A stretch of 64,000 bases of DNA from Yuukianura sp. NJ FZ-2021 (taxonomy: Eukaryota), in assembly GCA_046563655.1 (NCBI GenBank), contig CM102286.1:9300001-9364000 (forward strand), written 5' to 3'. Position numbers and translations under genes: made by a program. The notes beneath the pieces were generated by a model. The model searched no databases. It was not told where the DNA came from and saw only the letters and a list, made by a program, of their open reading frames with translations. Position 1 is the stretch's first letter. Each line of letters starts with the position of its first letter. Shown here one piece after another: positions 17,074 to 64,000 of the stretch.

Positions 17074-18292
17074 TTATAATAGCGAAGCTATTATTATAGA
17101 AGACGTCTGTGTCCGTCCGTCCGTCCGTCCGTCCGTCCGTCCGTCTGCCTGTCCGGATTAATTATCTCAGAACCTACTGGTCCGATTTGATTCCGGTTTT
17201 CACCAGTGACCATGTCATGACCCGGGCTTGGTCACTATTGAATATGACCCTCGGGTGTCAACTCCTTCCGGGTCAAAGGTCAAGGTCAACCGGTTTCATC
17301 CCTGGTAACCCGGAAAATGACTTCTACAAAAGTTGTTCATCTCATTGAGACTAACAACTTTTGTGTGCAATGTGTGACCCTAGGTCACCTCCTTCCGGGT
17401 CAAAATTGATTTCAAAGGTCATTTGTAATGCAAGTGTGGGTACAAAAAACTCTGCTTGTGAGACTGGAAAGGCAATTGGCATGGGACTTGATTCTCTGCT
17501 TAGCAAAAAATCTATTACGCAGTTGACATATACACTCATCTGTCATCAGTCACCTGTCACTCTTCACATGTCACACTTCACCTGTCACTCTTCACATGTC
17601 ACACCCGTCATTAACTTCACATGTCACCTGTCACGTGGCGGGTGTCACCTGTCCCGTACCGGCGGGTGTCACCTGTCACGGTTCACCTTTCACGTGCCGG
17701 GTGTCACCTGTCACGCTTCACCTTTCACATTTCACCTGTCACCTGTCCCGTACCGGCGGGTGTCACCTGTCACGCTTCACCTTTCACGTGCCGGGTGTCA
17801 CCTGTCACGCTTCACCTTTCACATTTCACCTGTCACCTGTCCCGTACCGGCGGGTGTCACCTGTCACGCTTCACCTTTCACGTGCCGGGTGTCACCTGTC
17901 ACGCTTCACCTTTCACACTTCACCTGTCACCTGTCACGCTTCACCTTTCACACTTCACCTGTCACCTGTCACGTGCCGGGTGTCACCTGTCACGCCTCAC
18001 CTGTCACCTGGCACGTGCCGGGTGTCACCTGTCACGCCTCAGCTGTCACGTTTCACCTGTGAACATCCGCTAGGGGGGGCGAGCGGAAAAGTGGGGGGGA
18101 CACCCCCACTCCCCCCGGGGGGGGAGGAAGTGGCGGAACACACCCCCGCGCTCCCTGGGGTGCGGAGCAAAAAAGTGGGGGGAACACCCCCACTCCTGGC
18201 GGGCGGGAAAGTGGGGGGAAAACCCCCACCCCCTGGGGGGCAACCCCTTATTTCTGAGCTATTATCAGTATGCGCGGTTTACAACCGGTTTA
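17074..18292 (+). mobile_element. HINE-like element E1' (duplicate of E1)
   Basis: Near-identical to 6734-7954 at offset 10340, at the same position in the satellite monomer. Confidence 0.8.
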
Positions 18293-19525
18293 TTATAATA
18301 GCGAAGCTATTATTATAGAAGACGTCTGTCTGTCTGTCTGTCTGTCCGTCTGTCTGTCTGTCCAGATTAATTATCTCAGAAACAACTGGCCCGATTTGGT
18401 TCCGGTTTTCACCTATCAATACCCCATGACCCGCACTAGGTCACTATTGAATATGACCCCCGGGTGTCAACTCCTTCCGGGTCAAAGGTCAAGGTCAACC
18501 GGTTTCATCCCCGGTAACATGGAAAATGACCTCTACAAAAGTTGTTCACCTCATCGAGAGCAACAACTTTTGTGTGAAATGTATCACCCTAGGTGAACTC
18601 CTTCCGGGTCAAAATCGATTTAAAAGGTCATTTGTAATGCAAGTGTGGATAAAAAAAAACTCTGCTTGTGAGACTGGAAAGGCAATTGGCATGGGACTTG
18701 ATTCTCTGCTTAGCAAAAAATCCATTACGCAGTTGACTAACACACTCAACTGTCACCTGTCACACTTCATCTGTCACTTCACCTGTCACGTGCCGGGTGT
18801 CACATGTCATGCGCCGGATGCCACCTGTCACGTGCCGGGTGTCACCTGTCACGGCTGTCACGCGCCGGGTGTCACCTCTCACCTGTCACTTTCCGGGTGT
18901 CACCTCTCACCTGTCACTTTCCGGGTGTCACCTCTCACCTGTCACTTTCCGGGTGTCACCTCTCACCTGTCACTTTCCAGGTGTCACCTGTCACTTGCCG
19001 GGTGTCAGCTGTCACCTGTCACTTTCCGGGTGTCACCTGTCTCCTGTCACGTCCCGGGTATCATCTGTCACATGCCGGGTGTCACCTGTCACGTGCCGCG
19101 TGTCACCTGTCACCCTCAAGTGTCACTTGTCGGGTGTCACCTGTCACCTGTCACGCCTCAGCTGTCACGTCTCACCTGCCAACACCCCCTGGAAGGCGGG
19201 AAAGTGGAGGGAACACACCCCCACTACCCCGGGGGGGGGGCGGGAAAGTGGGGGGAACACACCCCCACTACCCCGGGGGGGCGGGAAAGTGGGGGGAACA
19301 CACCCCCACTACCCCGGGGGGGGGCGGGAAAGTGGGGGGAACACACCCCCACGCCTCCTGGGGTGCGGAGCAAAAAAGCGGGAAAACACACCCCCACTCC
19401 CCCGGCGGGGCGGGAAAGTTGGGGGAACACACCTTCGCTCACCTTTGGAGGGGGGGCTTCAGTGTGATTTACAAAACTTTCCTATTCTTCGCTATTATCA
19501 TTAAGGGCGGTTTACAACCGGTTTA
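18293..19525 (+). mobile_element. HINE-like element E2' (duplicate of E2)
   Basis: The 5' part is near-identical to E2; part of the 3' region is more like E3. Confidence 0.8.
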
Positions 19526-21067
19526 TTATAATAGCGAAGCTATTATTATAGAAGACGTCTGTCTGTCTGTCTGTCTGTCCGTCTGTCTGTCTGTCCAGAT
19601 TAATTATCTCAGAAACAACTGGCCCGATTTGGTTCCGGTTTTCACCTATCAATACCCCATGACCCGGACTAGGTCACTATTGAATATGACCCCCGGGTGT
19701 CAACTCCTTCCGGGTCAAAGGTCAAGGTCAACCGGTTTTATCCCCGGTAACATGCAAGATGGCCTCTACAAAAGTTGTTCATCTCATTGAGACCAACAAC
19801 TTTTGTGTGGAATGTGTGACCCTAGGTCACCTGTTTCCGGGTCAAAATTGATTTTAAAGGTCATTTGTAATGCAAGTGTGGGTACAAAAAACTCTGCTTG
19901 TGAGACTGGAAAGGCAATTGGCATGGGAGTTGATTCTCTGCTTAGCAAAAAATCCATTACGCAGTTGACTAACACACTCAACTGTCACCTGTCACACTTC
20001 ATCTGTCACTTCACCTGTCACGTGCCGGGTGTCACCTGTCACGGCTGTCACGCGCCGGGTGTCACCTGTCACGGCTGTCACTTGCAGGGTGTCAGTTGTC
20101 ACCTGTCACTCACGTGCCGGGTGTCACGTGTCACTTGCCGGGTGAGAGTTGTCAACTGTCACTCACGTGTCGGGTGTCACCTGTCACGTGCTGGGTGTCA
20201 GCTGTCACCTGTCACTTTCCGGGTGTCACCTCTCACCTGTCACTTTCCGGGTGTCACCTGTCACTTTCCGGGTGTTACCTCTCACCTGTCACTTTCCGGG
20301 TGTCACCTGTCACTTGCCGGGTGTCAGCTGTCACCTGTCACTTTCCGGGTGTCACCTCTCACCTGTCACTTTCCGGGTGTCACCTCTCACCTGTCATTTT
20401 CCGGGTGTCACCTGTCACTTGCCGGGTGTCAGCTGTCAACTGTCACTTTCCGGGTGTCACCTGTCACCTGTCACGTGCAGGCATCGTCTGTCACATGCCG
20501 GGTGTCACCTGTCATACCGGGTGTCACCTGTCACCTGTCACGTGCCGCGTGTCACCTGTCACCCTCAAGTGTCACTTGCCGGGTGTCACCTGTCACCTGT
20601 CACGTGCCGGTATCGTCTGTCACATGCCGGGTGTCACCTATCATACCGGGTGTCACCTGTCACCTGTCACGTGCCGCGTGTCACCTGTCACCCTCAAGTG
20701 TCACTTGCCGGGTGTCACCTGTCACTTGTCACGCCTCAGCTGTCACGTCTCACCTGCCAACACCCCCTGGAAGGCGGGAAAGTGGGGGGAGCACAACCCC
20801 ACTACCCCGGGGGGGGGGGGGGGCGGGAGAGTGGGGGGAACACACCCCCACTACCCCGGGGGGGGCGGGAAAGTGGGGGGAACACACACCCACGCCTCCT
20901 GGGGTGCGGAGCAAAAAAGCGGGAAAACACACCCCCACTCCCCCGGCGGGGCGGAAAAGTTGGGGGAACACACCCCCGCTCACCTTTGGAGGGGGGAGCT
21001 TCAGTGTGATTTACAAAACTTTCCTATTCTTCGCTATTATCATTATGGGCGGTTTACAACCGGTTTA
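19526..21067 (+). mobile_element. HINE-like element E3' (duplicate of E3)
   Basis: Same termini as E3; the arrangement of minisatellite units differs. Confidence 0.8.
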
Positions 21068-24000
21068 TTTTTTCTTGTAATTACCAACGACCTTTGGATC
21101 AAGACTGGCTTCGAATTTAAAAATCAAACACAAGTATTTCCCCTGAAATAAATATTTTCTTCAGCTGTTGCTACAGGGGGTGGTGCATTGCGATGAAGCT
21201 TGTTAAATCAGAAGAATTTTTATCGTAATTAGCAACGGGTTCTTCAATATCGGACATAGTTCAAAAAGTTCAAACAGAAACAGTTGCTCTCAAAACGATG
21301 AGATAATTTTTGTTCACTGTGAGGGGTTGTGGATTCGGATGAACCTTGAAGGTTAGTCCATAAAATTTTTAAAAGGTTAGTGAGAAATTTAAGTTTTAAT
21401 TATTTTTTCTTGTAATTACCAACGACCTTTGGATCAAGACCGGCTTCGAATTTAAAAATCAAACACAAGTATTTGCTCTGAAATTAGTATTTTCTTCAGC
21501 CGTGGCTACAGGGGTGGTGAATTGCGCTGAAGCTTGGTAATTTAGAAGAATTTTTATCGTAATTAGCAACGGGTTCTTCAATATCGGACATAGTTCAAAA
21601 AGTTCAAACAGAAACAGTTGCTCTCAAAACGATGAGATAATTTTTGTTCACTGTGAGGGGTTGTGGATTCGGATGAACCTTGAAGGTTAGTCCATAAAAT
21701 TTTTAAAAGGTTAGTGAGAAATTTAAGTTTTAATTATTTTTTCTTGTAATTACCAACGACTTTTGGATCAAGACCGGCTTCGAATTTAAAAATCAAACAC
21801 AAGTATTTGCTCTGAAATAAATATTTTCTTCAGCCGTGGCTACAGGGGGTGGTGAATTGCGCTGAAGCTTGGTAATTTAGAAGAATTTTTATCGTAATTA
21901 GCAACGGGTTCTTCAATATCGGACATAGTTCAAAAAGTTCAAACAGAAACAGTTGCTCTCAAAACGATGAGATAATTTTTGTTCACTGTTAGGGGTTGTG
22001 GATTCGGATGAACCTTGAAGGTTAGTCCATAAAATTTTTAAAAGGTTAGTGAGAAATTTAAGTTTTAATTATTTTTTCTTGTAATTACCAACGACCTTTG
22101 GATCAAGACCGGCTTCGAATTTAAAAATCAAACACAAGTATTTGCTCTGAAATAAATATTTTCTTCAGCCGTGGCTACAGGGGGTGGTGAATTGCGCTGA
22201 AGCTTGGTAATTTAGAAGAATTTTTATCGTAATTAGCAACGGGTTCTTCAATATCGGACATAGTTCAAAAAGTTCAAACAGAAACAGTTGCTCTCAAAAC
22301 GATGAGATAATTTTTGTTCACTGTGAGGGGGTCGTGGATTCGGATGAACCTTGAAGGTTAGTCCATAAAATATCTAAAAGGTTAGTGAGAAATTTAAGTT
22401 TTAATTTTTTTCTTGTAATTACCAACGACCTTTGCATCAAGACCGGCTTCGAATTTAAAAATCAAACACAAGTATTTCCCCTGAAATAAATATTTTCTTC
22501 AGCTGTTGCTACAGGGGTGGTGCATTGCGATGAAGCTTGTTAATTCAGAAGAATTTTTATCGTAATTAGCAACGGGTACTTCAATATCGGACGTAGATGA
22601 AAAAGTTTTAACAGAAATAGTTGCTCTCAAAACGATGAGATAATTTTTGTTCACTGTGAGGGGGTTGTGGATTCGGATGAACCTTGAAGGTTAGTCCATA
22701 AAATATCTAAAAGGTTAGTGAGAAATTTAAGTTTTAATTTTTTTTCTTGTAATTACCAACGACCTTTGCATCAAGACCGGCTTCGAATTTAAAAATCAAA
22801 CACAAGTATTTCCCCTGAAATAAATATTTTCTTCAGCTGTTGCTACAGGGGTGGTGAATTGCGATGAAGCCTGGTAATTCAGAAGAATTTTTATCGTAAA
22901 TAGCAACGCGTTCTTCAATATCGGACATAGTTCAAAAAGTTCAAACAGAAACAGTTGCTCTCACAACGATGAGATAATTTTTGTTCACTGTGAGAGGGTT
23001 GTGGATTCGGATGAACCTTGAAGGTTAGTCCATAAAATTTTTAAAAGCTTAGTGAGAAATTTAAGTTCTAATTATTTTTTCTTGTAATTACCAACGACAT
23101 TTGCATCAAGACCGGCTTAGAATTTAAAAATCAAACACAAGTATTTGCTCTGAAATTAGTATTTTTTCAGCTGACGCTACAAGGGGTGTTGCATTGCGAT
23201 GAAGCTTGGTAATTTAGAAGAATTTTTATCGTAATTAGCAACGGGTTCTTCAATATCGGACATAGTTCAAAAAGTTCAAACAGAAACAGTTGCTCTCAAA
23301 ACGATGAGATAATTTTTGTTCACTGTGAGGGGGTCGTGGATTCGGATGAACCTTGAAGGTTAGTCCATAAAATATCTAAAAGGTTAGTGAGAAATTTAAG
23401 TTTTAATTTTTTTCTTGTAATTACCAACGACCTTTGCATCAAGACCGGCTTCGAATTTAAAAATCAAACACAAGTATTTCCCCTGAAATAAATATTTTCT
23501 TCAGCTGTTGCTACAGGGGGTGGTGCATTGCGATGAAGCTTGTTAATTCAGAAGAATTTTTATCGTAATTAGCAAAGGGTACTTCAATATCGGACGTAGA
23601 TGAAAAAGTTTTAACAGAAATAGTTGCTCTCAAAACGATGAGATAATTTTTGTTCACTGTGAGGGGGTTGTGGATTCGGATGAACCTTGAAGGTTAGTCC
23701 ATAAAATATCTAAAAGGTTAGTGAGAAATTTAAGTTTTAATTTTTTTCTTGTAATTACCAACGACCTTTGCATCAAGACCGGCTTCGAATTTAAAAATCA
23801 AACACAAGTATTTCCCCTGAAATAAATATTTTCTTCAGCTGTTGCTACAGGGGTGGTGAATTGCGATGAAGCCTGGTAATTCAGAAGAATTTTTATCGTA
23901 AATAGCAACGCGTTCTTCAATATCGGACATAGTTCAAAAAGTTCAAACAGAAACAGTTGCTCTCACAACGATGAGATAATTTTTGTTCACTGTGAGAGGG

Positions 24001-51000: not shown

Positions 51001-53111
51001 TGAAATAAATAGTTTCTTCCGCTGACGCTACAAGGGGTGGCGAATTGCGATGAAGCTTGGCAATTTAGAAGAATTTTTATCGTAATTAGCAACGGGTACT
51101 TCAATATCGGACGTAGATGAAAAAGTTCAAACAGAAATAGTTGCTCTCAAAACGATGTGATAATTTTTGTTAAATGTGAGGGGGTTGTGGATTGGGATAA
51201 AGCTTGAAGGATAGTCCATAAAATATTTAAAAGGTTAGTGAGAAATTTCAGTTTTAATTATTTTTTCTTGTAATTACCAACGACCTTTGCATCAAGACCG
51301 GCTTGGAATTTAAAAATCAAACACAAGTTTTTGCTCTGAAATAAATAGTTTCTTCAGCTGACGCTACAGGGGTGGTGCATTTCGATGAAGCTTGGTAATT
51401 TAGAAAAATTTTTATCGTAATTAGCAACGGATTCTTCAATACCAGACATAGATCAAAAATTTTCAACAGAAATAGTTGCTCTCCAAACGATGTGATAATT
51501 TTTGTTAAATGTGAGGGGTTGTGGATTGGGATGAAGCTTGAAGGATAGTCCATAAAATATTTAAAAGGTTAGTGAGAAATTTCAGTTTTAATTATTTTTT
51601 CTTGTAATTACCAACGACCTTTGCATCAAGACCGGCTTGGAATTTAAAAATCACACACAAGTTTTTGCTCTGAAATAAATAGTTTCTTCCGCTGACGCTA
51701 CAGGGGTGGCGAATTGCGATGAAGCTTGGCAATTTAGAAGAATTTTTATCGTAATTAGCAACGGGTACTTCAATATCGGACGTAGATGAAAAAGTTCAAA
51801 CAGAAATAGTTGCTCTCAAAACGATGTGATAATTTTTGTTAAATGTGAGGGGGTTGTGGATTGGGATGAAGCTTGAAGGATAGTCCATAAAATATTTAAA
51901 AGGTTAGTGAGAAATTTCAGTTTTAATTATTTTTTCTTGTAATTACCAACGACCTTTGCATCAAGACCGGCTTGGAATTTAAAAATCACACACAAGTTTT
52001 TGCTCTGAAATAAATAGTTTCTTCCGCTGACGCTACAGGGGGTGGCGAATTGCGATGAAGCTTGGCAATTTAGAAGAATTTTTATCGTAATTAGCAACGG
52101 GTACTTCAATATCGGACGTAGATGAAAAAGTTCAAACAGAAATAGTTGCTCTCAAAACGATGTGATAATTTTTGTTAAATGTGAGGGGGTTGTAGATTGG
52201 GATAAAGCTTGAAGGATAGTCCATAAAATATTTAAAAGGTTAGTGAGAAATTTCAGTTTTAATTATTTTTTCTTGTAATTACCAACGACCTTTGCATCAA
52301 GACCGGCTTGGAATTTAAAAATCAAACACAAGTTTTTGCTCTGAAATAAATAGTTTCTTCAGCTGACGCTACAGGGGGTGGTGCATTTCGATGAAGCTTG
52401 GTAATTTAGAAAAATTTTTATCGTAATTAGCAACGGATTCTTCAATACCAGACATAGATCAAAAATTTTCAACAGAAATAGTTGCTCTCCAAACGATGTG
52501 ATAATTTTTGTTAAATGTGAGGGGGTTGTGGATTGGGATGAAGCTTGAAGGATAGTCCATAAAATATTTAAAATGTTAGTGAGAAATTTCAGTTTTAATT
52601 ATTTTTTCTTGTAATTACCAACGACCTTTGCATCAAGACCGGCTTGGAATTTAAAAATCACACACAAGTTTTTGCTCTGAAATAAATAGTTTCTTCCGCT
52701 GACGCTACAGGGGGTGGTGCATTTCGATGAAGCTTGGTAATTTAGAAAAATTTTTATCGTAATTAGCAACGGATTCTTCAATACCAGACATAGATCAAAA
52801 ATTTTCAACAGAAATAGTTGCTCTCAAAACGATGTGATAATTTTTGTTAAATGTGAGGGGTTGTGGATTGGGATGAAGCTTGAAGGATAGTCCATAAAAT
52901 ATTTAAAAGGTTAGTGAGAAATTTCAGTTTTAATTATTTTTTCTTGTAATTACCAACGACCTTTGAATCAAGACCGGCTTGGAATTTAAAAATCACACAC
53001 AAGTTTTTGCTCTGAAATAAATAGTTTCTTCCGCTGACGCTACAGGGGGTGGCGAATTGCGATGAAGCTTGGCAATTTAGAAGAGTTTTTATCGTAATTA
53101 GCAACGGGTAC
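21068..53111. repeat. Satellite B main array (~95 monomers, ~32 kb)
   Basis: Uninterrupted 334-337-bp tandem repeat with region-specific variants and local higher-order periodicity. Confidence 0.98.
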
Positions 53112-53238
53112 TGTTAGGGTAGTGGCAACCATTATGACATTATGACGCAATGTCAATATAGGTCAGCGTACTGGTATAAATAAAAGCTTCCGAGGGTAAT
53201 ACCCTCGGCATTCTTGAGCCCCAAAACCATCCGTAACA
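53112..53238 (+). repeat. 5' LTR (127 bp)
   Basis: Starts TGTTA, ends TAACA, and is a direct repeat of 62050-62168. Contains TATAAATAAAA (53175-53185) and the hairpin CCGAGGGT-AAT-ACCCTCGG (53190-53208). Confidence 0.96.
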
Positions 53239-53239
53239 A

Positions 53240-53251
53240 TGGTAGCAGAGG
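53240..53251 (+). promoter_or_regulatory. Primer binding site complementary to initiator tRNA-Met
   Basis: TGGTAGCAGAGG lies 1 nt after the LTR and is the reverse complement of the metazoan tRNA-iMet 3' end (...CCUCUGCUACCA, recalled from memory). Confidence 0.88.
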
Positions 53252-53320
53252 GATGAACTCACGACACTTAAATAAAAAATACAGTTGAAAGGAATTTTAT
53301 CTAATCGTATTTACGTTTAC

Positions 53321-54640
53321 ATGAGTAAAAATACAGAACGCACCCGCGAATCCAAACGACTAAGAAATTTAGATCCAAGTCCTCTCGTTGAAACCCCTCC
53401 ACGCGTTCCTAAGAAGAAAAAAGTTGTCGTTAATATTCATGCACCTTTGGAGGGTACGCCTAAAACAAGAGTATCCACGGCCTCGAATTCACTAGAATTT
53501 AGGGATTATAGAATACAAGACGAATCTGACGAATCTGATCCCGACGAAGTCGAAATTAATGACCCATCTGAAAGTTCTTACGACACAACAGAAGAAACAA
53601 TAATTAACAGATCACCAACGAGCACGGCAAGTATTATCCAGCCTAGCCTATTTATACAGCTAAGAAAAGACAACGCAAATAACGAACCCATCACAATGAA
53701 CGCCAATGCGCAAGTAGTCCTGCTCCACGAAAAAATGCCGAAATACTCTCAGACACTGTTAAGTAAACAGGAACTAGAAATATTCCTAAACTTATACGAA
53801 ATTTGGTTCAAACAGAAAGCATTGACAGAACCTCAGGCCAAAATGCAACTCCAAATGGCCATTCCTTTAAAAGTAGCTCAACAGTGGTTCGCAATTAATA
53901 AAGACATGATAACTGATAACACTGTTAATTGGGAAACTTATAAAACTGCCTTCCAACGAGATTGTCCAACGGAAAATAGTGACGAAGACCTATCATTTGC
54001 AGAAATAATTTCGAAAACACAAGGAAAAAACGAAAAAGCGTCGTTGTTTATACAAAAAATCAGATATCTTTTTGGTCAGAATTGGGGAAATTACCCCGAA
54101 AGAGAAATAGTCAAGGGAATGGTTCACCAACTTAATTTAAACACACGCAGATACATCGAATGCCGAGGAGTTCCAGATACTTACGGCGATCTTATGAGGC
54201 AAATTCAACAATACGAGTCGAAAGGCGGTGCAAAGGATATTGACGAAATTACAGTTAAAACAGAAATTCCAGTGAACTACCTTGAACAAACTAGACTCGC
54301 GGAAATTGAAAACTCCCTCAAAAATATAAGCATTTTGTTAACGCCAGCTAATAGAAACCCAAGGATCCCTCACGAGCAAAGGAATTACCAGAATCAAAGG
54401 CAGGGCACCCAGTATATCCAGAGAGATGGGAAGTTTAAATTTCGGAATAATGGCCAACTGAGCCAACATGTCAACTCCCGGGAACGAGAAACCCGATCCT
54501 GCAACTACTGTGGCCGGGTCGGTCACCTGCAAGCAAGGTGTTTTTTAGCACAAAGGCACCAACAAAATCAATTCATGCGACAAGATACACGGGATCGGAA
54601 CAATTACCAATATAACAGGAGCCGGGGAAACTTCCAATAG
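53321..54640 (+). CDS. gag: Gag polyprotein (439 aa from first ATG)
   Basis: First ORF after the PBS; the track start at 53285 is TTG and the first ATG is 53321. Has a CCHC knuckle CNYCGRVGHLQARC (54500-54541), a Q/N/R-rich C-terminus and a basic PKKKKV motif near the N-terminus. Confidence 0.92.
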   Translation: MSKNTERTRESKRLRNLDPSPLVETPPRVPKKKKVVVNIHAPLEGTPKTRVSTASNSLEFRDYRIQDESDESDPDEVEINDPSESSYDTTEETIINRSPTSTASIIQPSLFIQLRKDNANNEPITMNANAQVVLLHEKMPKYSQTLLSKQELEIFLNLYEIWFKQKALTEPQAKMQLQMAIPLKVAQQWFAINKDMITDNTVNWETYKTAFQRDCPTENSDEDLSFAEIISKTQGKNEKASLFIQKIRYLFGQNWGNYPEREIVKGMVHQLNLNTRRYIECRGVPDTYGDLMRQIQQYESKGGAKDIDEITVKTEIPVNYLEQTRLAEIENSLKNISILLTPANRNPRIPHEQRNYQNQRQGTQYIQRDGKFKFRNNGQLSQHVNSRERETRSCNYCGRVGHLQARCFLAQRHQQNQFMRQDTRDRNNYQYNRSRGNFQ

Positions 54641-54662
54641 CGGATCAAGGACACCGATCCGC
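54625..54662 (+). promoter_or_regulatory. -1 programmed ribosomal frameshift signal (gag to pol)
   Basis: Slippery heptamer G GGA AAC (54625-54631) is in the gag frame, followed by an 8-nt spacer and the stem GCGGATC-9 nt-GATCCGC (54640-54662). Pol is in the -1 frame and is open from here. Confidence 0.85.
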
Positions 54663-57600
54663 GGAAAAAATTATCGTCCAAATCAATCTATCAAACACCA
54701 GCACAAAAATTGTTGAAGGAAAAATTAAAAACAAAATTGTTAACATCACAATCGATACGGGAGCAGGTAGAGGCCTGATAAGAGAGGATGCTGTAATGGA
54801 TTGCGAACGTCAACCTAACAACAAATTTAAATTACAAACACTGAATAATGAGGAAATCAGGGACACCGGCTTAGCAATCGTGCCTTTAGAGTTAGGAAAA
54901 TTAAAAATTAATCGCGAATTTATCATAGTAAAGAATTGTCCAACGGAGCTGCTTTTGGGCGATGATATATTGGAAGACTTCGGATTTGACATTTCATACA
55001 ACCAAAAATGCCTCCAATCTCCCGAGGCTGGGAGAATTCCATTTATAAACATACAAAGAAAAGAACAAATACTCTCGTTAACAGTTGTTAATAGCATAAA
55101 AATAAACAAAATTGATATCAATCCAAAACTCACGGACGAAAATAAAGGCAAACTTTACGACATTATAAGAAAAAACTCAAAATCATTCTCTTGGGACGGC
55201 GAATTGGGACGGACTAGGAAAATTCAGTTTAGTATAGAGACTGGAAACGCTGAACCAATTCGACATAGACCCTACCCAACATCAGAGAGCCAAAGAAAGC
55301 TTATACAAGAACACGTCAAAGAAATGCTCGACAAAGACATAATTGAACCGAGCGACTCCCCATGGGCAAGCCCATGCGTACTGGTCGACAAAAAACCAGA
55401 TAAAGACGGAAAAATTAAAAAACGATTTTGTGTTGACTTCAGATCATTGAATAACGTAACCAAAAAATCCTCGTATCCCTTACCCAGAATCGAAGATATA
55501 CTCACGCGGTTACGAGGAGCACGATACTTCTCATCATTGGATTTAATTTCAGGCTTCTGGCAAGTGGAAATAAAACCAGAGGATCGCGAAAAAACGGCTT
55601 TTATCACGGCGGATGGGTTATATCAGTTCAAAGTTATGCCGTTTGGACTATGTAATAGTCCACCACAATTCTCGAAACTAATGGACATCGTGCTGGCAGA
55701 ACTGAAGAACCAAACTTGTATTTGCTACATAGATGATATTATAATTTACTCGCACACAATAGAAGAACATTTACTCAAGCTTGATAAAATCCTACATCGA
55801 GTGGGTCGAGAAAACTTGTTAATACAACCAACCAAATGCCGGCTTTTGTATGAAGAAATTAGCATTCTGGGCTACACTGTCTCGGAGGGAGGAATTAAAT
55901 TAGATAACTCAATGATTCAAGGATTGAAACAACTTCCAGTACCAAGAACAAAGAAACAGCTACAAACAGTATTAGGGTTTTTTTCATATTTTCGTAAATT
56001 CATTCATAATTATGCTAAAATTATGTCTCCACTCACGAAGCTATTAACCAAAGAGGCAAAGTTCGAATGGAACGAGGAGCAACAAAATACTTTCACGAAA
56101 ATGAAAAATTTATTACTCAATGCCCCAATCCTCACTTTATTTAATCCGGAACGGGAAACAATATTAAAAACGGATGCAAGCACAATAGGATTAGGAGCTT
56201 GTTTAGTTCAAATTGTGAATGGAATCGAAAAACCAATTGCCTTCGCCAGCAAATCCATCACAAAAGCACAGAAGAACTGGACGACGACAGAACTAGAACT
56301 TTTGAGTATAATCTACGGTATTAAAAAATTCGGGACATTCCTCAAAGGCAAGGAATTCAAAATTCACACGGATCATCATGCCTTATGCTGGATTCTAAAA
56401 GCCAGGAGAGAGGAGATGCCCCCAAAACTAGTTAGAATGGTTGAGTTCCTAACATCTTATCAAATTGAAGGAATTTATCATATCGCCGGTAAAAGACACT
56501 TACCCGACTGTCTCTCGAGATTTCCAATTGAACTTCCAAAGTTAAAAAAACCCATGGATGAAGATATAGAAGAACTAGAGGATGTACCAATCTTGCTTGC
56601 AGCTCCAGTATTATTAACTGAAGCCCAGAAGCAGGATCCAGAAATAACGCAAATAAAGAAATACTTAGAATCAGGGGAAGTCTTTACGAAAAAATCCAAC
56701 TATAAAATACAGCAAGATATTCTATATTATTGGAACGCGAAATTGAGCCGCTACACAATTGTAGTTCCACGCCGCCTCATTTCCACGATTTTAGCCGAAT
56801 GTCATGACGGACCCCTATCAGCACATTTGGGCTACACAAAGACAAATTTTAGAATCCAATCACGTTATTACTGGAAAGGAATGACCTCCGACATTAAAAA
56901 ATATATTAAAACATGTGAAGATTGCCAAAAACGGAAAATACCAAGAATAAAACCGGCTGGACTCATGCAGAAGATGCATTTTGACAAAAATTTGTTCACT
57001 AAAATCCAAATTGATGTAATGGGACCCCTAAATCGAAGTACCAAAGGAAACAGATACGTGGTGACCGCCATTTGTTATGTTAGTAAATGGATGGAATCCC
57101 GAGCAATGAGAGAAGCCACAGCAGAAAACATTGCGAGCTTTATCTTAGAACAGATAATCTGTAGGCATGGGTGCCCAAAAGAAATTCAAAGCGACAGGGG
57201 CGGTATTTTCACTAGCGAAATAATGAAGCACATTTCAGCAAAACTTGGAATCAATCACAGGTTTAGCACAGCATACCACCCGGAATCACAGGGATTGGTC
57301 GAAAGGAGTCACTCCACGTTAGTAACATGCCTCGCTATATACACGCAAAAAAATCCTAAAGAATGGGACAATTTTCTACCACATATCACGTTCGCAATAA
57401 ACACGGCAATTCAAGAAACAACAAAATTCACTCCGTTCTTTTTAGTTTACGGAAGAGAGGCAATTATGCCAGTAGAAGCAGAATTGGTGGCCGAATCAGA
57501 ATTTACTTCAGTAGAAGAAATGATTAAAAATATACAAAAAGCTAGAATACTAGCAGGTGAGCGAATTGAGGAGGCACAAGAAAAATACGCGGAATACTAC

Positions 57601-58107
57601 AACAAAAACAGACGAGAAGCTTCGTTCAAACCTGGGGACAAGGTGCTGATTCGAAAATTTATGAAAAGGAAAGGAATTTCAGTCAAGTTACTCCATTACT
57701 ATTTTGGCCCATACGAAGTCATACAAAAATTATCGGACGTTAACTACATAGTTGAAGCAAGGAAAGGAAAGAAGACATTCCGGGAAACGGTTCACATAGA
57801 TAAAATGAAATCATATTTTGAACGGACCAGGGAAGACGTAAGGGTAGAAGGTCAACAATTGAAATCGGAAAACAAGGTTCACCCGGAAGAAAGAGAAGGA
57901 AAAAACCACCCATTACACGAGAACAGCAACGGCGACCTAAAGTCGAAAGAAGAAGAAGGGGACCAGAAGAAGGGAGAAATAAAAATATCATCACAGGGGG
58001 AGCTAGGGTCACCCAAAAATAACTCAACCAACATCAGTAGCGAGGTAAGGCAATTTGGGAGGTACAACCTGAGAGCCAGGGGTAAAAAAGTAAAGTATAG
58101 ATATTAG
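54628..58107 (+). CDS. pol: Pol: aspartic protease, reverse transcriptase, RNase H, integrase with GPY/F motif
   Basis: The frame is open upstream of the track ATG (54796) and includes protease IDTGA (DTG 54754-54762). RT: RFCVDFR, YPLPRI, MPFGL, YIDD (55726-55737). RNase H: TDAS, ELE, TDH. IN: HHCC (H..H..CEDC), D-D-E (IDVMGP, SDRG, VERSH), FGPYEV. No internal stops. Confidence 0.97.
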   Translation, partial: KLPIADQGHRSAEKIIVQINLSNTSTKIVEGKIKNKIVNITIDTGAGRGLIREDAVMDCERQPNNKFKLQTLNNEEIRDTGLAIVPLELGKLKINREFIIVKNCPTELLLGDDILEDFGFDISYNQKCLQSPEAGRIPFINIQRKEQILSLTVVNSIKINKIDINPKLTDENKGKLYDIIRKNSKSFSWDGELGRTRKIQFSIETGNAEPIRHRPYPTSESQRKLIQEHVKEMLDKDIIEPSDSPWASPCVLVDKKPDKDGKIKKRFCVDFRSLNNVTKKSSYPLPRIEDILTRLRGARYFSSLDLISGFWQVEIKPEDREKTAFITADGLYQFKVMPFGLCNSPPQFSKLMDIVLAELKNQTCICYIDDIIIYSHTIEEHLLKLDKILHRVGRENLLIQPTKCRLLYEEISILGYTVSEGGIKLDNSMIQGLKQLPVPRTKKQLQTVLGFFSYFRKFIHNYAKIMSPLTKLLTKEAKFEWNEEQQNTFTKMKNLLLNAPILTLFNPERETILKTDASTIGLGACLVQIVNGIEKPIAFASKSITKAQKNWTTTELELLSIIYGIKKFGTFLKGKEFKIHTDHHALCWILKARREEMPPKLVRMVEFLTSYQIEGIYHIAGKRHLPDCLSRFPIELPKLKKPMDEDIEELEDVPILLAAPVLLTEAQKQDPEITQIKKYLESGEVFTKKSNYKIQQDILYYWNAKLSRYTIVVPRRLISTILAECHDGPLSAHLGYTKTNFRIQSRYYWKGMTSDIKKYIKTCEDCQKRKIPRIKPAGLMQKMHFDKNLFTKIQIDVMGPLNRSTKGNRYVVTAICYVSKWMESRAMREATAENIASFILEQIICRHGCPKEIQSDRGGIFTSEIMKHISAKLGINHRFSTAYHPESQGLVERSHSTLVTCLAIYTQKNPKEWDNFLPHITFAINTAIQETTKFTPFFLVYGREAIMPVEAELVAESEFTSVEEMIKNIQKARILAGERIEEAQEKYAEYYNKNRREASFKPGDKVLIRKFMKRKGISVKLLHYYFGPYEVIQKLSDVNYIVEARKGKKTFRETVHIDKMKSYFERTREDVRVEGQQLKSENKVHPEEREGKNHPLHENSNGDLKSKEEEGDQKKGEIKISSQGELGSPKNNSTNISSEVRQFGRYNLRARGKKVKYRY

Positions 58108-58154
58108 GCACCAAAATTAATTAGGACGGCGGCCGCCAAAAGTTAGGTATAAAA

Positions 58155-60314
58155 ATGACAACAGGTACGAATAGGTATTCATTCAACAAAAAAGCCTTAG
58201 CCATGGCTCCAAACAAGCAGAGCAGAAAACAACAGAAGGAAAAACAGAAGAGAAATTCATTGTATTCGCATCACGAAAACACAGAAAACATAAAACCAAA
58301 CCTACTACTAAATGTAGTCATTATCCTTATTCTGGCAAAACTTCTCTTCGGACTAGCAATTGCGACAGAAATTCCGACAAGGGTTGTCAGAGGCATCTAC
58401 GAAGAAGAAATTCCAGCAGTAACCTATGAAGGCACAATACCATTAATTTACGAAGCCCAATTACCTCAACTCACATATGCCACCATAATAGATTCACGAT
58501 ATCAGAACAATCCTACAGTGCAGACATTGAAAGATGTGATTGCACAAGTTCAAAGAATATTTAATATGGAATCACTCACAGGAATTCGAAAATGGAAAAA
58601 AATTGATAATGCCCTGCGCCAAAAACGGAGCCTAGAATTTGTGGGCAACTTTGCAAGTTGGTGTTGCAACGTGGCTACAGTTAAAAACATTGACGAAATC
58701 CATACGACGGAAGACAAAATTGCCAAGTTTGTTGTAAATGTGGAAGAAAAACTACTTCACGAAAATCAGGATCTCCTCAAAGTAACCAAGATTGTTAACA
58801 CTTACTCTGACTCACTAAATATATCCATAGAAAGACTAGAGGCCCATTGGGGCAATGAATTTTCAAAATTACTCGACGTGAACGACGAATTAGAACAGGC
58901 AACGAACGGAAATAGTCAGGCAATTGTCAACCTAGCTAAGGCCTGGCACGAGTCAATAATCGCAACTATCTGGACAAAAGTATATTCTGATTGTCAACAA
59001 AATCATCTGCCTAAATTAGTGGTAGACCCGCGCACATTATCCAGGGATCTGGAGAAACTAAAAAATGTTTTAAAAACGGATAACCGGACACTCGTCATTA
59101 ACGAAGACATAATAGGAAGATACTATCACCTCCCCATCAGCACGTGTTCATTCTCTAATGAACGACTAATAATTAATTTAAAAGTCCCTATACGATCAAC
59201 TGAGTCAAACCTAAAAATTTTCGAAGTTACGCCCATACCGTTTCAACATGTACGGGATGTATGTACGCTGAAGCTCGAATCTGAAATAATTATCAAAAAC
59301 AATAAGAAATACATATACATGACGGGAAAAGATACGAAAAATTGCAACGTAAAAGTAGATGGACTATGCTTCATTCCTCGTTTCCATAAAAATTCAATTC
59401 ACACATCATCATGTCTTCAGCACCTTTTCGGTAACGAAACAACAATGGAAAATCTACAACAATACTGCCCCCTAACTTGTAAACAAATGGGACAAAAAGA
59501 CGTAATTATCACCCAACTGTCAACGAACCGATTTACTATAATCAACAATAAGGAAGAGCTAATATTAAAATGTGGCAACCAATCTCATGCAGTAATAACA
59601 CCTCAAGGTCATTCCGGCTCAGTAGAAGTAACAGTACCTTGTGGGTGTGCCCTAATTGGACCAGAAACTTTAATTTCAACAGCATATCCATGTGAGCATG
59701 GCATAAAAATGTCAGTTCATAATATAATTCCAGCAGCATGGTCAAAACTAAAAACAGCACCCTTAAACGAAAAACTTCTTTTCCACAACAAAACGGAAAT
59801 CTTCAATGAACATTGGCACCTGGAAATTCCACATATTAACATCTCGTTACCTACACTAAAGAAAAATGATGATAAAGTAAATTACTGGACGGAGGATCAC
59901 AAAATTGAATACTTCAATGGACTAAGTCGAATAACCACCCATTTGTCTTTTACATCTACGCTTTGGCTAGTCATCATCACGTTATGGCTTCTATACCTCA
60001 CGTGGAGATTGGGAATCCTAAGTCCATTGACCATGGCAATGACCTTCCCACTTGGAGCAAGAGGAGATGTGGTTGACGTAGTATTAGAGAGCATAGAAAA
60101 TTCACTTCTATTGGAAATTGTAATTATTTTGATTATAATTTTTATTACGCTTCGATCACTGAGAAATTTAATTGCTGTCGCAACAAAAATTGCAATAAGG
60201 GATTCACGTCATAATAAGGAAGTAAAATTCGATGGAGAAGCAGTGACAATCAACATAGTTGGAAGCCAAAACACGGATGAAGAAACTGAGGAAGAGGCAG
60301 AAATGAATTCCTAA
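58155..60314 (+). CDS. env: Envelope glycoprotein, class I fusion type (errantivirus env / baculovirus F-like architecture), 719 aa
   Basis: Hydrophobic signal LLLNVVIILILAKLLFGLAIA. Furin site RQKR (58617-58628) is followed by a fusion-peptide-like SLEFVGNFASWCCNVA, a heptad-like region, a Cys-rich ectodomain with N-glycosylation sequons and C-terminal TM segments. It lies directly after pol. Confidence 0.85.
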   Translation: MTTGTNRYSFNKKALAMAPNKQSRKQQKEKQKRNSLYSHHENTENIKPNLLLNVVIILILAKLLFGLAIATEIPTRVVRGIYEEEIPAVTYEGTIPLIYEAQLPQLTYATIIDSRYQNNPTVQTLKDVIAQVQRIFNMESLTGIRKWKKIDNALRQKRSLEFVGNFASWCCNVATVKNIDEIHTTEDKIAKFVVNVEEKLLHENQDLLKVTKIVNTYSDSLNISIERLEAHWGNEFSKLLDVNDELEQATNGNSQAIVNLAKAWHESIIATIWTKVYSDCQQNHLPKLVVDPRTLSRDLEKLKNVLKTDNRTLVINEDIIGRYYHLPISTCSFSNERLIINLKVPIRSTESNLKIFEVTPIPFQHVRDVCTLKLESEIIIKNNKKYIYMTGKDTKNCNVKVDGLCFIPRFHKNSIHTSSCLQHLFGNETTMENLQQYCPLTCKQMGQKDVIITQLSTNRFTIINNKEELILKCGNQSHAVITPQGHSGSVEVTVPCGCALIGPETLISTAYPCEHGIKMSVHNIIPAAWSKLKTAPLNEKLLFHNKTEIFNEHWHLEIPHINISLPTLKKNDDKVNYWTEDHKIEYFNGLSRITTHLSFTSTLWLVIITLWLLYLTWRLGILSPLTMAMTFPLGARGDVVDVVLESIENSLLLEIVIILIIIFITLRSLRNLIAVATKIAIRDSRHNKEVKFDGEAVTINIVGSQNTDEETEEEAEMNS

Positions 60315-60553
60315 AAAATATTGTCACTCTACTTTCACAACATCAAAATAAAAATTGCAACAAAATAAAATTAACAAAATTTAATCAACTCTTCCAGCTG
60401 CAAATCCCTTAAATAGACAGCCAAAAACAGCTAAGAATTCATTTACCTCTTCGCTTTCAATGGCTGAGAAAACTCACGATGTCCCAAAATTCTAACCACA
60501 CAAAAAAAATATTTCTTCAACTTAACCACGAATTAGAACAAAGCTAACGAAAA

Positions 60554-60913
60554 TTGTACGGCTTCCTGTTTTCTTTAATTATCAACGCACAAAATTTTGA
60601 TAACGAAGAAAACATCAGTCAATCTGATAATTTACAAGAACCGCTTAACTTATCCATTGCAGGCACCCCACCGCCCTCAACTTCTACGGGACATATCTCT
60701 ACGAACCCTGAGCTTGACTCATGCGTTAGGAAATGTTGTGTATGCAGCACCACTAGCAGCCGATATTGGCGAAATGTCACAAGCGGTAACCCACTTTGTA
60801 ATGCATGTTACCAATACCAGAAAAGACATGGGGTGCCAAGGCCACCTAGACTCTATAATAGCCCCATAATTCTAAGAAGAAGACGCCAGTATCCGTATTA
60901 TTTCGAAAATTAA
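60554..60913 (+). CDS. Accessory ORF A: GATA-type zinc finger protein with PLNLS motif (start uncertain; possibly spliced or disrupted)
   Basis: CCVC-STTSSRYWRNVTSGNPL-CNAC-YQYQKRHGVPRP fits C-x2-C-x17-C-x2-C with the conserved WR, LCNAC and G-x-x-RP (60734-60808). PLNLS is at 60641-60655 and there is a basic RRRR tail. The open frame has no ATG; an in-frame ATG at 60479 is separated from it by a single TAA at 60545-60547. Confidence 0.75.
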   Translation: MYGFLFSLIINAQNFDNEENISQSDNLQEPLNLSIAGTPPPSTSTGHISTNPELDSCVRKCCVCSTTSSRYWRNVTSGNPLCNACYQYQKRHGVPRPPRLYNSPIILRRRRQYPYYFEN

Positions 60914-61019
60914 ACTCTAAGTTAATAACTTACCATCATTCGGTGTCAGAAATCAGCACTCTGCACAATTTTTTTACTTTCACTTTCGAAATTATTTTTT
61001 TCCAAAGTACACTCACGAA

Positions 61020-61658
61020 ATGTCTTACTCGCGTCCACAGACGGAACAACAGGCGGGAGCAGACCAGTTCACCAGGGAATACTGGGATATTTACAAAACA
61101 ATTGAAACAGGACAACGAAACCTGTTTCGCAAAATTCTTTTCCATATTCATCCACAAGCAAGAAGAACTCCCGGACAATTCCACAATTACAACCCTCATT
61201 ACAATCGCACAGCAAATACAGTTCATTCACGACCCACCGAAATAATTCGACCACCTCACGAATGCACAACAAACATTTCCGAACAGTACTATCCACAACC
61301 GTCAAGTCAAAACCCAACCGCAAGGGATTATAAGAAAATTGAAAGTCCCAGACATAACCAGCAAGGCTGGCCAGCGGAAGCTGCTTCATCTTCATCACGA
61401 GAGATAATCATCCCACCCACCAAAGACGGAGAGAGTAAATCACCCTTTAAAAGACAAGCGGAAGAACGAGTGAGTACGGAAGACTCAAAAAAGGGGGCAA
61501 TGTTGGAGGAGATATTCGGAAAGGCATTAAAAAAGAAGAAGAAGAAGAAAAAGAAAACAAAGCACCCACGATTGTCACCAGCCGAAGTTAAACTCTCCGA
61601 GTCAGATAGTGAATCATCATCCTCTTCGTCTTCTTCTTCTTCGGAGAAATCAGCATAA
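61020..61658 (+). CDS. Accessory ORF B: 212-aa protein of unknown function with poly-Lys NLS-like tract and Ser/acidic tail
   Basis: ATG-initiated 639-bp ORF in AT-rich sequence, in the element's sense. The N-terminal segment (FTREYWDIYKTIETGQRNLFRKILFHI) looks ordered; the C-terminus has KKKKKKKKTK and SESDSESSSSSSSSSSEKSA. Preceded by a pyrimidine tract plus AG at 61006-61007. Confidence 0.6.
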   Translation: MSYSRPQTEQQAGADQFTREYWDIYKTIETGQRNLFRKILFHIHPQARRTPGQFHNYNPHYNRTANTVHSRPTEIIRPPHECTTNISEQYYPQPSSQNPTARDYKKIESPRHNQQGWPAEAASSSSREIIIPPTKDGESKSPFKRQAEERVSTEDSKKGAMLEEIFGKALKKKKKKKKKTKHPRLSPAEVKLSESDSESSSSSSSSSSEKSA

Positions 61659-62015
61659 AAGGAATTTTTTTTTCGGATTCACGCAAGTTTTACATTAAGC
61701 TTAAGTTTTCAGTTTCCTTTCATTTCATTTTTTTTAAAAATATTACCATTTAACAGTCGTAAACATAGGATAGTGAAATTTAAACTTTTGTCTATAGTCT
61801 ATCATTCAACTTTTACTTCTCATTTCTCAATCTTTTAGAATAGCATTTTCAACTAGCGTTTAGCTCCTTCACTTCTACCTCTATGAAATAACAGAAAACA
61901 GTTAGTAAGCAAAACCCAGAAAAAGCAAAACAAAAGTAACAACAAAAACAAAATAGAAAATTTTTTTGTTCACTCTGTAAACTTTCTTAGTACATTGTAA
62001 ATTTTAGATAAACTT

Positions 62016-62049
62016 ATGATCGGGACGATCATTAGCTTTTAGGTAGGTG
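62016..62049 (+). promoter_or_regulatory. Pre-PPT hairpin and atypical short polypurine tract
   Basis: ATGATCG-GGA-CGATCAT stem-loop (62016-62032), then TTTT-AGGTAGGTG directly before the 3' LTR. Confidence 0.5.
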
Positions 62050-62168
62050 TGTTAGGGTAGTGGTAACCATTATGACGCAATGTCAATGTAGGTCAGAATA
62101 CTGGTATAAATAAAAGCTTCCGAGGGTAATACCCTCGGCATTCTTGAGCCCCAAAACCATCCGTAACA
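62050..62168 (+). repeat. 3' LTR (119 bp)
   Basis: TGTTA...TAACA direct repeat of the 5' LTR, followed by the GTAC TSD. Confidence 0.96.
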
Positions 62169-64000
62169 GTACTTCAATATCGGACGTAGATGAAAAAGTT
62201 CAAACAGAAATAGTTGCTCTCAAAACGATGTGATAATTTTTGTTAAATGTGAGGGGGTTGTGGATTGGGATGAAGCTTGAAGGATAGTCCATAAAATATT
62301 TAAAAGGTTAGTGAGAAATTTAACTTTTAATTATTTTTTCTTGTAATTACCAACGACCTTTGCATCAAGACCGGCTTTGAATTTAAAAATCAAACACAAG
62401 TTTTTGCTCTGAAATAAATAGTTTCTTCAGCTGACGCTACAGGGGGTGGCGAATTGCGATGAAGCTTGGCAATTTAGAAGAATTTTTATCGTAATTAGCA
62501 ACGGGTACTTCAATATCGGACGTAGATGAAAAAGTTCAAACAGAAATAGTTGCTCTCAAAACGATGTGATAATTTTTGTTAAATGTGAGGGGGTTGTGGA
62601 TTGGGATGAAGCTTGAAGGATAGTCCATAAAATATTTAAAAGGTTAGTGAGAAATTTCAGTTTTAATTATTTTTTCTTGTAATTACCAACGACCTTTGCA
62701 TCAAGACCGGCTTGGAATTTAAAAATCACACACAAGTTTTTGCTCTGAAATAAATAGTTTCTTCCGCTGACGCTACAGGGGGTGGCGAATTGCGATGAAG
62801 CTTGGCAATTTAGAAGAATTTTTATCGTAATTAGCAACGGGTACTTCAATATCGGACGTAGATGAAAAAGTTCAAACAGAAATAGTTGCTCTCAAAACGA
62901 TGTGATAATTTTTGTTAAATGTGAGGGGGTTGTGGATTGGGATAAAGCTTGAAGGATAGTCCATAAAATATTTAAAAGGTTAGTGAGAAATTTCAGTTTT
63001 AATTATTTTTTCTTGTAATTACCAACGACCTTTGCATCAAGACCGGCTTGGAATTTAAAAATCAAACACAAGTTTTTGCTCTGAAATAAATAGTTTCTTC
63101 AGCTGACGCTACAGGGGTGGTGCATTTCGATGAAGCTTGGTAATTTAGAAAAATTTTATCGTAATTAGCAACGGATTCTTCAATACCAGACATAGATCAA
63201 AAATTTTCAACAGAAATAGTTGCTCTCAAAACGATGTGATAATTTTTGTTAAATGTGAGGGGGTTGTGGATTGGGATGAAGCTTGAAGGACAGTCCATAA
63301 AATATTTAAAAGGTTAGTGAGAAATTTAACTTTTAATTATTTTTTTCTTGTAATTACCAACGACCTTTGCATCAAGACCGGCTTTGAATTTAAAAATCAA
63401 ACACAAGTTTTTGCTCTGAAATAAATAGTTTCTTCAGCTGACGCTACAGGGGGTGGCGAATTGCGATGAAGCTTGGCAATTTAGAAGAATTTTTATCGTA
63501 ATTAGCAACGGGTACTTCAATATCGGACGTAGATGAAAAAGTTCAAACAGAAATAGTTGCTCTCAAAACGATGTGATAATTTTTGTTAAATGTGAGGGGG
63601 TTGTGGATTGGGATGAAGCTTGAAGGATAGTCCATAAAATATTTAAAAGGTTAGTGAGAAATTTCAGTTTTAATTATTTTTTCTTGTAATTACCAACGAC
63701 CTTTGCATCAAGACCGGCTTTGAATTTAAAAATCAAACACAAGTTTTTGCTCTGAAATAAATAGTTTCTTCAGCTGACGCTACAGGGGGTGGCGAATTGC
63801 GATGAAGCTTGGCAATTTAGAAGAATTTTTATCGTAATTAGCAACGGGTACTTCAATATCGGACGTAGATGAAAAAGTTCAAACAGAAATAGTTGCTCTC
63901 AAAACGATGTGATAATTTTTGTTAAATGTGAGGGGGTTGTGGATTGGGATGAAGCTTGAAGGATAGTCCATAAAATATTTAAAAGGTTAGTGAGAAATTT
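62169..64000. repeat. Satellite B resumes in register (~5.5 monomers, runs off the right edge)
   Basis: GTACTTCAATATCGGACGTAG continues the monomer interrupted at 53111. Confidence 0.97.

Follow-up and report, generated by a model that had tools for sequence, protein, structure and literature searches.

Can long terminal repeat (LTR) retroelements, which are already known to acquire extra open reading frames (ORFs) in the form of env genes, enzymes and host fragments, also take up the DNA-binding domain of a transcription factor? This question is raised by a 64-kb stretch of the genome of Yuukianura sp. NJ FZ-2021 (contig CM102286.1 of assembly GCA_046563655.1, positions 9,300,001 to 9,364,000 of the forward strand; referred to here as the window and numbered from its first letter), in which a Ty3/gypsy-type LTR retroelement at positions 53112–62168 contains a small plus-strand ORF encoding a GATA-type zinc finger. 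An original prediction, made from the letters of the DNA, had described this finger, and its account of the motif holds when the sequence is read directly: the Cys4 finger C-x2-C-x17-C-N-A-C occupies 60734–60808 (plus strand; residues 61–85 of the ORF, which we number from the TTG at 60554 where it is listed as beginning), W-R is found at residues 72–73, Y at 88, G-V-P-R-P at 93–97 and RRRR at 108–111. The end of a helix and a basic tail (residues 86–112, with R-P-P-R-L-Y and then R-R-R-R) follow on the same strand at 60809–60889, as judged from alignments to the C-terminal fingers (C-fingers) of GATA factors, which extend to residue 111. Across a six-frame translation of the 64 kb, the pattern C-x2-C-x17-C-x2-C occurs free of stop codons once, in this finger.

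Profile search and structure prediction had both been proposed as checks on the finger, and both bear it out. The Pfam GATA profile (PF00320) matches at 30.8 bits (gathering cut-off 26.8; E 2.1e-7) over profile positions 1–35 of 36, and of the 16 PDB chains that a sequence search returned at E ≤ 0.01, every one is by molecule name a DNA-binding protein of the GATA family: GATA-1 to GATA-4, AreA, a GATA factor from a plant and an entry labelled 'GATA-type transcription factor'. The highest score, 39.1 bits, belongs to the C-terminal finger and tail of GATA-4, compared with 23.8 bits for the GATA-4 N-terminal finger. AlphaFold2, given a 36-sequence alignment, yields a model whose predicted local distance difference test (pLDDT) score is 93–96 over residues 61–100, with strands at 72–74 and 80–82 and a helix at 83–92; within the basic tail the score is 96 for residues 91–100 and 84 for residues 101–110. 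When Foldseek was used to compare the model with the PDB, the top 19 matches were all GATA DNA-binding domains, with root-mean-square deviations down to 0.6–2.0. In the 36-sequence alignment the element's finger keeps all five invariant columns (the four Cys and R96) together with 9 of the 12 nearly invariant columns of finger and tail. By spacing, profile and fold, then, the segment 60734–60889 is a genuine GATA-type finger plus basic tail. That the finger is an artefact, either a chance pattern of cysteines or an assembly chimera with a host exon inside the element, is an idea that draws something from the highly repetitive nature of the window, which makes for a difficult assembly, but the Pfam, PDB and fold evidence speaks against it, as do contigs (from the same sample, which is possibly the window's source) that join the env tail, the region of the GATA ORF and a second accessory ORF (ORF5) in diverged copies; we consider an artefact of either kind scarcely credible.

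The original prediction also took the finger to be encoded by a retroelement, and this too proved right: its ORF lies on the sense strand between an env-like ORF and the 3′ LTR of a complete, retrovirus-like Ty3/gypsy-type element of 9,057 bp, in which we find a pair of LTRs, a target-site duplication, a gag ORF with a CCHC knuckle and the expected order of domains in pol, every ORF being on the plus strand. We regard the assignment of the domain and its place in a retroelement as secure. In a literature search that was judged by titles and the starts of abstracts and covered few subscription journals, no GATA finger encoded by a retroelement came to light, and within that literature a GATA-type DNA-binding domain as the cargo of an LTR retroelement is apparently unreported. 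The reading that we favour, and hold with moderate confidence, is that a captured GATA domain is carried here as an accessory ORF of an env-bearing Ty3/gypsy-type element, possibly as a DNA-binding regulator.

Searches of protein databases point to a cellular source for the finger. When 1.84 billion representative proteins were searched exhaustively with HMMER, 2266 matched the ORF at E ≤ 0.001 and none at 1e-30; the matches of the 150 best of these 2266 all lie in the C-terminal half of the ORF, and 147 of the 150 end at residues 97–117, placing them on the finger and its basic tail. A word-indexed protein search with the GATA ORF at near lengths gave no matches. As far as these comparisons go, only the DNA-binding domain of about 60 amino acids appears to have relatives, and these are cellular GATA proteins. 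When single fingers were ranked among 157 proteins from the search, the nearest was that of P0262, a 461-amino-acid metagenome protein (52% identity over 60 residues; BLASTP E 3e-19), and others close by belonged to P0190 (201 amino acids, from the nematode Steinernema hermaphroditum; 48% over 52 residues), to P0127, which has three fingers, and to P0130; P0262, P0190 and P0130 all have a tail similar to that of the element. The only Pfam family above cut-off in these near proteins is GATA, save that P0190 also matches ArfGap over the same zinc finger. In all of them Q-Y takes the place of L-Y after C-N-A-C and a basic residue that of the canonical L, and the tail has R-P-x-x-L-F/Y followed by arginines close to the end of the protein. 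The likeness is closest to small one-finger cellular GATA factors of the P0190 and P0262 type, which have the same C-x2-C-x17-C-x2-C finger near the C-terminus and share with the element Q-Y-x-basic-basic-H/N-G-x-P-R-P and then R-P-x-x-L-F/Y with its arginine run. These factors differ from the element's ORF in being stand-alone cellular genes with GATA domains only, whereas that ORF lacks its own start codon, and the identity of 48–52% is confined to about 60 residues.

The original prediction had proposed a phylogeny that might reveal the donor of the finger, and this succeeded only in part. A quick maximum-likelihood tree, computed from 277 fingers and 54 columns, places the element's finger within a set of 31 non-canonical rows (Shimodaira–Hasegawa-like approximate likelihood ratio test support of 96), with P0262 as its nearest row, but the branches are long and 160 of 273 inner branches are open, leaving the tree largely unresolved. 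No donor can be named because the 31-row set is a mixture of proteins from a fungus, mites, a tardigrade, a nematode, a springtail and metagenomes. Six of the proteins in our comparison (P0122, P0126, P0127, P0130, P0230 and P0236) have three to nine GATA-like fingers in tandem, which are non-canonical and show C-Y-x-Y/F after the third Cys, as exemplified by a 982-amino-acid protein of the springtail Folsomia candida; this tandem-finger subgroup is little described, and it is the one to which the element's finger is nearest. A look-up of the GATA ORF in a protein atlas returned GATA clusters at scores of up to 0.86, which we treated as leads only.

Compared with the C-fingers of GATA-4, GATA-3 and GATA-1, the element's finger replaces the L before W-R by Y, the second R of W-R-R by N, the G-L that follows C-N-A-C by Y-Q and the L of K-L-H by R, in agreement with the original prediction that the canonical TPLWRR and CNACGLY are replaced; the canonical residues are thus lacking at the positions presumed to read WGATAR. 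Several of the substituted positions presumably contact DNA bases in the structures of GATA-1 bound to DNA. Because base-contact positions are substituted, binding to WGATAR is not to be assumed, and the DNA site of the element's finger probably differs from it. In other respects the finger resembles canonical GATA-1 to GATA-6 and AreA (PDB 8vg0, 4hc7, 3vd6 and 4gat), with which it has in common the fold, the zinc ligands, W-R and C-N-A-C as well as the Y, H-G, R-P and basic tail, and from which it differs, besides the substitutions at L, R, G-L and L, in being a single finger in a protein with no other conserved region. The unusual residues are not private to the element, since they are also found in the cellular proteins P0262, P0127, P0190 and P0130. 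Because they are common to a non-canonical cellular subgroup, the simplest reading of the alignments would be capture of the DNA-binding end of a non-canonical host gene rather than drift of a canonical finger after its capture. In many animal GATA genes a conserved intron is found 24 nt into the basic region, according to the accessible part of a preprint (bioRxiv 10.1101/2022.05.20.492891). We infer that the uninterrupted run of finger and tail in the element is compatible with capture from spliced RNA.

Under the reading we favour, the DNA-binding module of a cellular GATA factor, comprising a C-terminal-type finger and basic tail of about 60 residues, would have been captured, presumably by way of a processed RNA to judge from the contiguity of finger and tail, into the 3′ accessory region of the element, where it would travel as an extra sense-strand ORF preceded by some 60 disordered residues rich in acidic, Ser, Thr and Pro residues. 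Those members of the family that work would make a small nuclear protein that binds DNA sequence-specifically, probably at a site other than WGATAR, and modulates transcription of the element or of host genes. In the present copy a spliced mRNA would have to supply the start codon; otherwise this copy would be defective. The AlphaFold2 model gives residues 1–60 a pLDDT of 51–64 and no secondary structure, and this N-terminal stretch, acidic and rich in Ser, Thr and Pro, is probably disordered.

Within the N-terminal stretch lies the motif on which the original prediction had based a further claim, namely that the protein is a minimal repressor whose finger binds DNA while P-L-N-L-S recruits the co-repressor CtBP. 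The motif is present as described, with E-P-L-N-L-S at residues 29–34 and P-L-N-L-S itself at residues 30–34 (60641–60655, plus strand), 27 residues before the first Cys, and it fits the CtBP motif class P-[LVIPME]-[DENS]-[LM]-[VASTRG]. It also lies where pLDDT is 51–58, in a probably disordered stretch. The accessible text of one paper (PMC8816384) states that exactly this pentapeptide mediates CtBP binding in SOX6 and in Caenorhabditis elegans EGL-13, where, as in the element, it is situated in a non-globular region of a DNA-binding protein, and P-L-N-L-S co-occurs with CtBP in the accessible parts of papers on ZNF750, ZEB and Hairless. In SOX6 and EGL-13, however, that text describes a motif conserved across phyla with binding shown, whereas in the element there is a single occurrence. 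The motif class appears in 558 of 20,000 composition-preserving shuffles of the ORF (2.8%), for a motif that was picked after the fact, and it has two matches among 18,110 positions in the six frames of the element, the second of which, PLELG in pol, is there by chance. The acidic surroundings of the motif would equally fit an activation region. No test that we made supports the claim of a CtBP-recruiting repressor, which comes down to one short motif, and we think such a repressor very unlikely.

A number of findings weigh against the accessory-gene reading, and several of them speak for a rival account in which the ORF is a relic carried along as a passenger: part of a host GATA mRNA, acquired once by template switching, useless to the element and decaying in this copy, with its start lost or cut off. 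The first concerns the reading frame. The original prediction drew the ORF as 60479–60913, overlooking an in-frame TAA and the lack of an ATG beyond it, and no single frame is open across this span: the ATG at 60479 shares its frame with the finger but leads a frame of only 22 codons (60479–60547, plus strand) that ends at the TAA at 60545–60547, and the open frame that contains the finger (60548–60913, plus strand; 121 codons and a stop, identified by its translation and the Pfam GATA match) has no ATG at all, its only listed start being the TTG at 60554. The stop thus separates the sole in-frame ATG from the finger. Nor does the length of the frame, by itself, say much, given that 55 of 2000 shuffles of 60315–62049 yield a frame of at least 121 codons, as a relic would have it. 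In a crude splice scan we found neither a strong donor in the leader nor a pyrimidine-rich acceptor beside the ORF. A functional accessory gene would have either its own start codon or a documented spliced mRNA, and neither is found here. Read from its sequence, the present copy is either broken or dependent on splicing for a start codon. Two ways around the stop were considered and set aside: an alternative code in which TAA is a sense codon is ruled out, as the env-like ORF, the GATA ORF and ORF5 all terminate at TAA, and a donor-like GT just past the gag ATG, joined in frame to the first AG behind a pyrimidine run upstream of residue 19, was dropped as unsupported.

Other findings on the same side come from outside the frame. 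No relatives of the ORF beyond the finger and tail were found among the HMMER matches listed, and in a metagenome scan with pol the 80 loci kept of 462 relatives contain no GATA-like frame, no relative of the env-like ORF and no relative of ORF5, only one of these loci being close and that one ending inside pol; both results fit a relic. The LTRs of this copy differ by 4 substitutions over 119 aligned nt (3.4%) and by one 8-nt indel, so the copy is not young, and in DNA reads the depth of gag-pol-env is 45–85 against thousands for the surrounding satellite, so that the full-length element looks low-copy; both the non-identical LTRs and the low copy number are likewise what a relic would lead one to expect. 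The canonical WGATAR is absent from both LTRs, which contain no GATA core, and in the element as a whole it is found at 30 sites, compared with 29.3 ± 4.7 in shuffles, which is no enrichment. Finally, what can be said of the intactness of the ORF in other copies rests on only 12 of the 24 indels and on few of the substitutions.

Against the relic account stand three observations. The zinc ligands are all intact, as are most of the conserved residues of finger and tail; the gag, pol and env-like ORFs of the present copy are all open; and versions of the accessory region differ by more than the two LTRs do, as though the cargo had been carried through the history of the family. The last point comes from a search for sequencing runs that contain the region, which listed three DNA runs (X1–X3) and no RNA run; the three are all from one sample and one study that is possibly the source of the window, and hence not independent of it. 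Over 60383–61942 one diverged contig has 87 differences and 16 gap letters, over 60853–61295 another has 55 differences and 13 gap letters, and a further one covers 60048–60381; copies of the accessory region differ by about 6% and by about 13–15%, compared with 3.4% between the LTRs. Because this divergence exceeds the LTR difference, the cargo would predate the present insertion and would have been copied on more than one occasion. Of the 24 indels, 12 are listed: none of these 12 falls within 60554–60882, three at 60883–60895 sum to zero, and several lie in spacers (60501 and 60964–60995) and in ORF5 (61252 and 61263). In X1 the depth across 60153–61400 is three to six times that of gag-pol-env. 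On balance we regard the passenger relic as a real possibility, if not a probable one.

The window offers one further idea of what the finger might do, which is to tether the element: the finger would bind a repeat such as the 336-bp satellite that surrounds the insertion and so steer integration or retention. In favour of this are the location of the element in satellite DNA and the presence of one TGATAA in each 336-bp unit, with 58 forward WGATAR sites in 20 kb of array. The density of sites in the satellite (2.9 per kb) is, however, not above that in the element (3.3 per kb), a single insertion is seen, the base-contact positions of the finger are non-canonical, and targeting by Ty3/gypsy elements is known to act through extensions of the integrase. 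Taken together, the counts of GATA sites in the LTRs, the element and the satellite give no sign of a canonical autoregulatory site and a faint hint of tethering, and we rate a tethering factor as very unlikely.

A more far-reaching version of the accessory-gene reading, which we put forward as doubtful, is that an invertebrate env-bearing LTR element encodes its own regulator, a host-derived GATA finger altered at the positions that read bases. Such a protein would be made from a subgenomic mRNA, in the manner of the trans-regulators of complex retroviruses, and its target might be the promoter of the element, host genes under GATA control or, alternatively, repeated DNA to which it would serve as a tether. 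If the ORF is expressed, the element would be a simple natural example of a mobile element with its own sequence-specific regulator outside the vertebrate retroviruses, and also a route by which transcription-factor domains could be copied and spread within a genome. If the ORF is a dead passenger, it would still be a clean case of an LTR element transducing the domain of a host transcription factor.

Acutely transforming retroviruses transduce the genes of cellular transcription factors, and Tas of the foamy viruses is a DNA-binding trans-activator. In these systems, as would be the case here, a nuclear DNA-binding regulator is encoded downstream of env, but they are vertebrate systems in which expression, via splicing or an internal promoter, has been shown. 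We know of no transduced retroviral regulator or Tas-type trans-activator that is a GATA finger. Similar in position to the GATA ORF are the ORFs of bdelloid rotifer LTR elements (PMC5408684), which are likewise on the sense strand between pol or env and the 3′ LTR and were apparently acquired; the text of that paper contains neither 'GATA' nor 'zinc finger'. Extra ORFs of Ty3/gypsy-type elements are also described in the accessible parts of papers on plant elements (PMC7264820) and on the Cer1 element CERV (PMC10309623). In what these sources describe, as far as they are accessible, the additional ORFs of the rotifer, plant and Cer1 elements include no sequence-specific transcription-factor domain as cargo, and it is in this respect that the element of the window differs from them.

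The remaining features of the element are those of a Ty3/gypsy-type retroelement, and all lie on the plus strand. The 5′ LTR (53112–53238; 127 nt, TG...CA) and the 3′ LTR (62050–62168; 119 nt) were delimited by repeat search and LTR alignment; the 5′ LTR contains a TATA-like and an AATAAA-like stretch, and at 53131–53146 it repeats 8 nt in tandem (ATTATGAC twice), a duplication absent from the 3′ LTR. One nucleotide past the 5′ LTR, a TGG-led stretch read from the sequence (53240–53251) resembles a primer-binding site. The gag ORF (53321–54640), with its CCHC knuckle towards the end, was recognized by translation and by homology to the gag frame of a metagenome locus, L001, and pol (54616–58107), which overlaps it in the −1 frame, is open from 54616 and contains the protease motif D-T-G (as I-D-T-G-A-G) followed by reverse transcriptase, RNase H and integrase (Pfam RVT_1, RT_RNaseH, Integrase_H2C2 and rve). 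A protein search with pol scored 7999 candidates, of which 2078 are related at E ≤ 0.001. Foremost among them are metagenome proteins with 65%, 52% and 50% identity, the 65%-identical ones (P0001 and P0277) being encoded on 8.5-kb contigs, and the named relatives, at about 40% identity, are polyproteins of the Ty3/gypsy type from arachnids, ticks, water fleas, a springtail and a nematode; to judge by them, the element is most likely that of a small invertebrate. L001 is the only close locus in the metagenome scan (pol 66% identity; gag E 3.9e-93), and it ends inside pol; IMG/VR, scanned with pol, with P0001 and with the GATA and env-like ORFs, yielded no relative.

The env-like ORF (58155–60314; 719 amino acids) was assigned from features of its sequence: one N-terminal and two C-terminal hydrophobic segments, 14 Cys, six N-x-S/T sequons, and a furin-like R-Q-K-R at residues 155–158 that is followed by a hydrophobic stretch. 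Cleavage at R-Q-K-R would yield a small N-terminal part and a large, membrane-anchored C-terminal part. We take this architecture to resemble that of the baculovirus F protein and the Env of insect errantiviruses, a likeness that no sequence or fold evidence backs: the ORF matches no Pfam family, none of 7992 scored candidates in a word-indexed protein search reached E ≤ 0.001, and the AlphaFold2 model, made from the single sequence with no alignment, has a mean pLDDT of 38 and is unusable. ORF5 (61020–61658; 212 amino acids) has its own ATG and a C-terminus with 11 lysines within 13 residues and a run of serines. It matches no Pfam family and has no homologue among the metagenome loci with related pol, and an atlas look-up returned only low-complexity look-alikes (scores up to 0.90, low recognition) that served as leads only. 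In diverged copies ORF5 has one 5-nt and one 2-nt deletion.

The element interrupts an array of satellite DNA. Nearly all of the 64-kb window is tandem satellite, made up of a 288-bp unit and a unit of 334–336 bp, together with two GC-rich blocks of short repeats; satellite spans 1–6732, 10710–17075, 21065–53109 and 62169–64000, the 288-bp unit is present in 19 copies, and one array of the longer unit has 95 copies with 94% matches. The array of the 336-bp unit is broken once, at 53112–62168, the 9,057-bp element being its only interruption. An identical GTAC beside each LTR, at 53108–53111 on the 5′ side and at 62169–62172 on the 3′ side, represents a 4-nt target-site duplication, and the uninterrupted site with a single GTAC is found in 78 satellite units of the window (at most two mismatches), compared with none expected by chance. 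The GC-rich blocks, at about 7000–10800 and 17300–21150, are some 10.3 kb apart and reach 53% GC. An Rfam search of the window, these blocks included, found no families. The blocks are composed of short repeats around TCACCTG and CCGGGTGTCACCTGTCAC and of G-rich units of 41–46 nt, and they yield long spurious ORFs in several frames.

The DNA runs also contain variants of the element and its surroundings. In X3 the depth of the satellite is about 40 times below that in X1 and full-length gag-pol-env is absent, while coverage is good for a piece about 6% diverged that comprises the env tail, the finger ORF and ORF5, which suggests that the satellite and the insertion sit in a compartment of the genome that is missing from one library. 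In the diverged copy of X3 the first 16 nt of the LTR are fused directly to the env tail (at window position 60048), and this copy may have arisen by internal deletion. A family of elements that is related and more abundant is represented by contigs matching the window only at conserved islands of pol, such as 57396–57438, where the differences fall mostly at every third base, as expected under purifying selection. In variant contigs of X3, an insertion at 60381–60383 has two ends that are mutually reverse-complementary.

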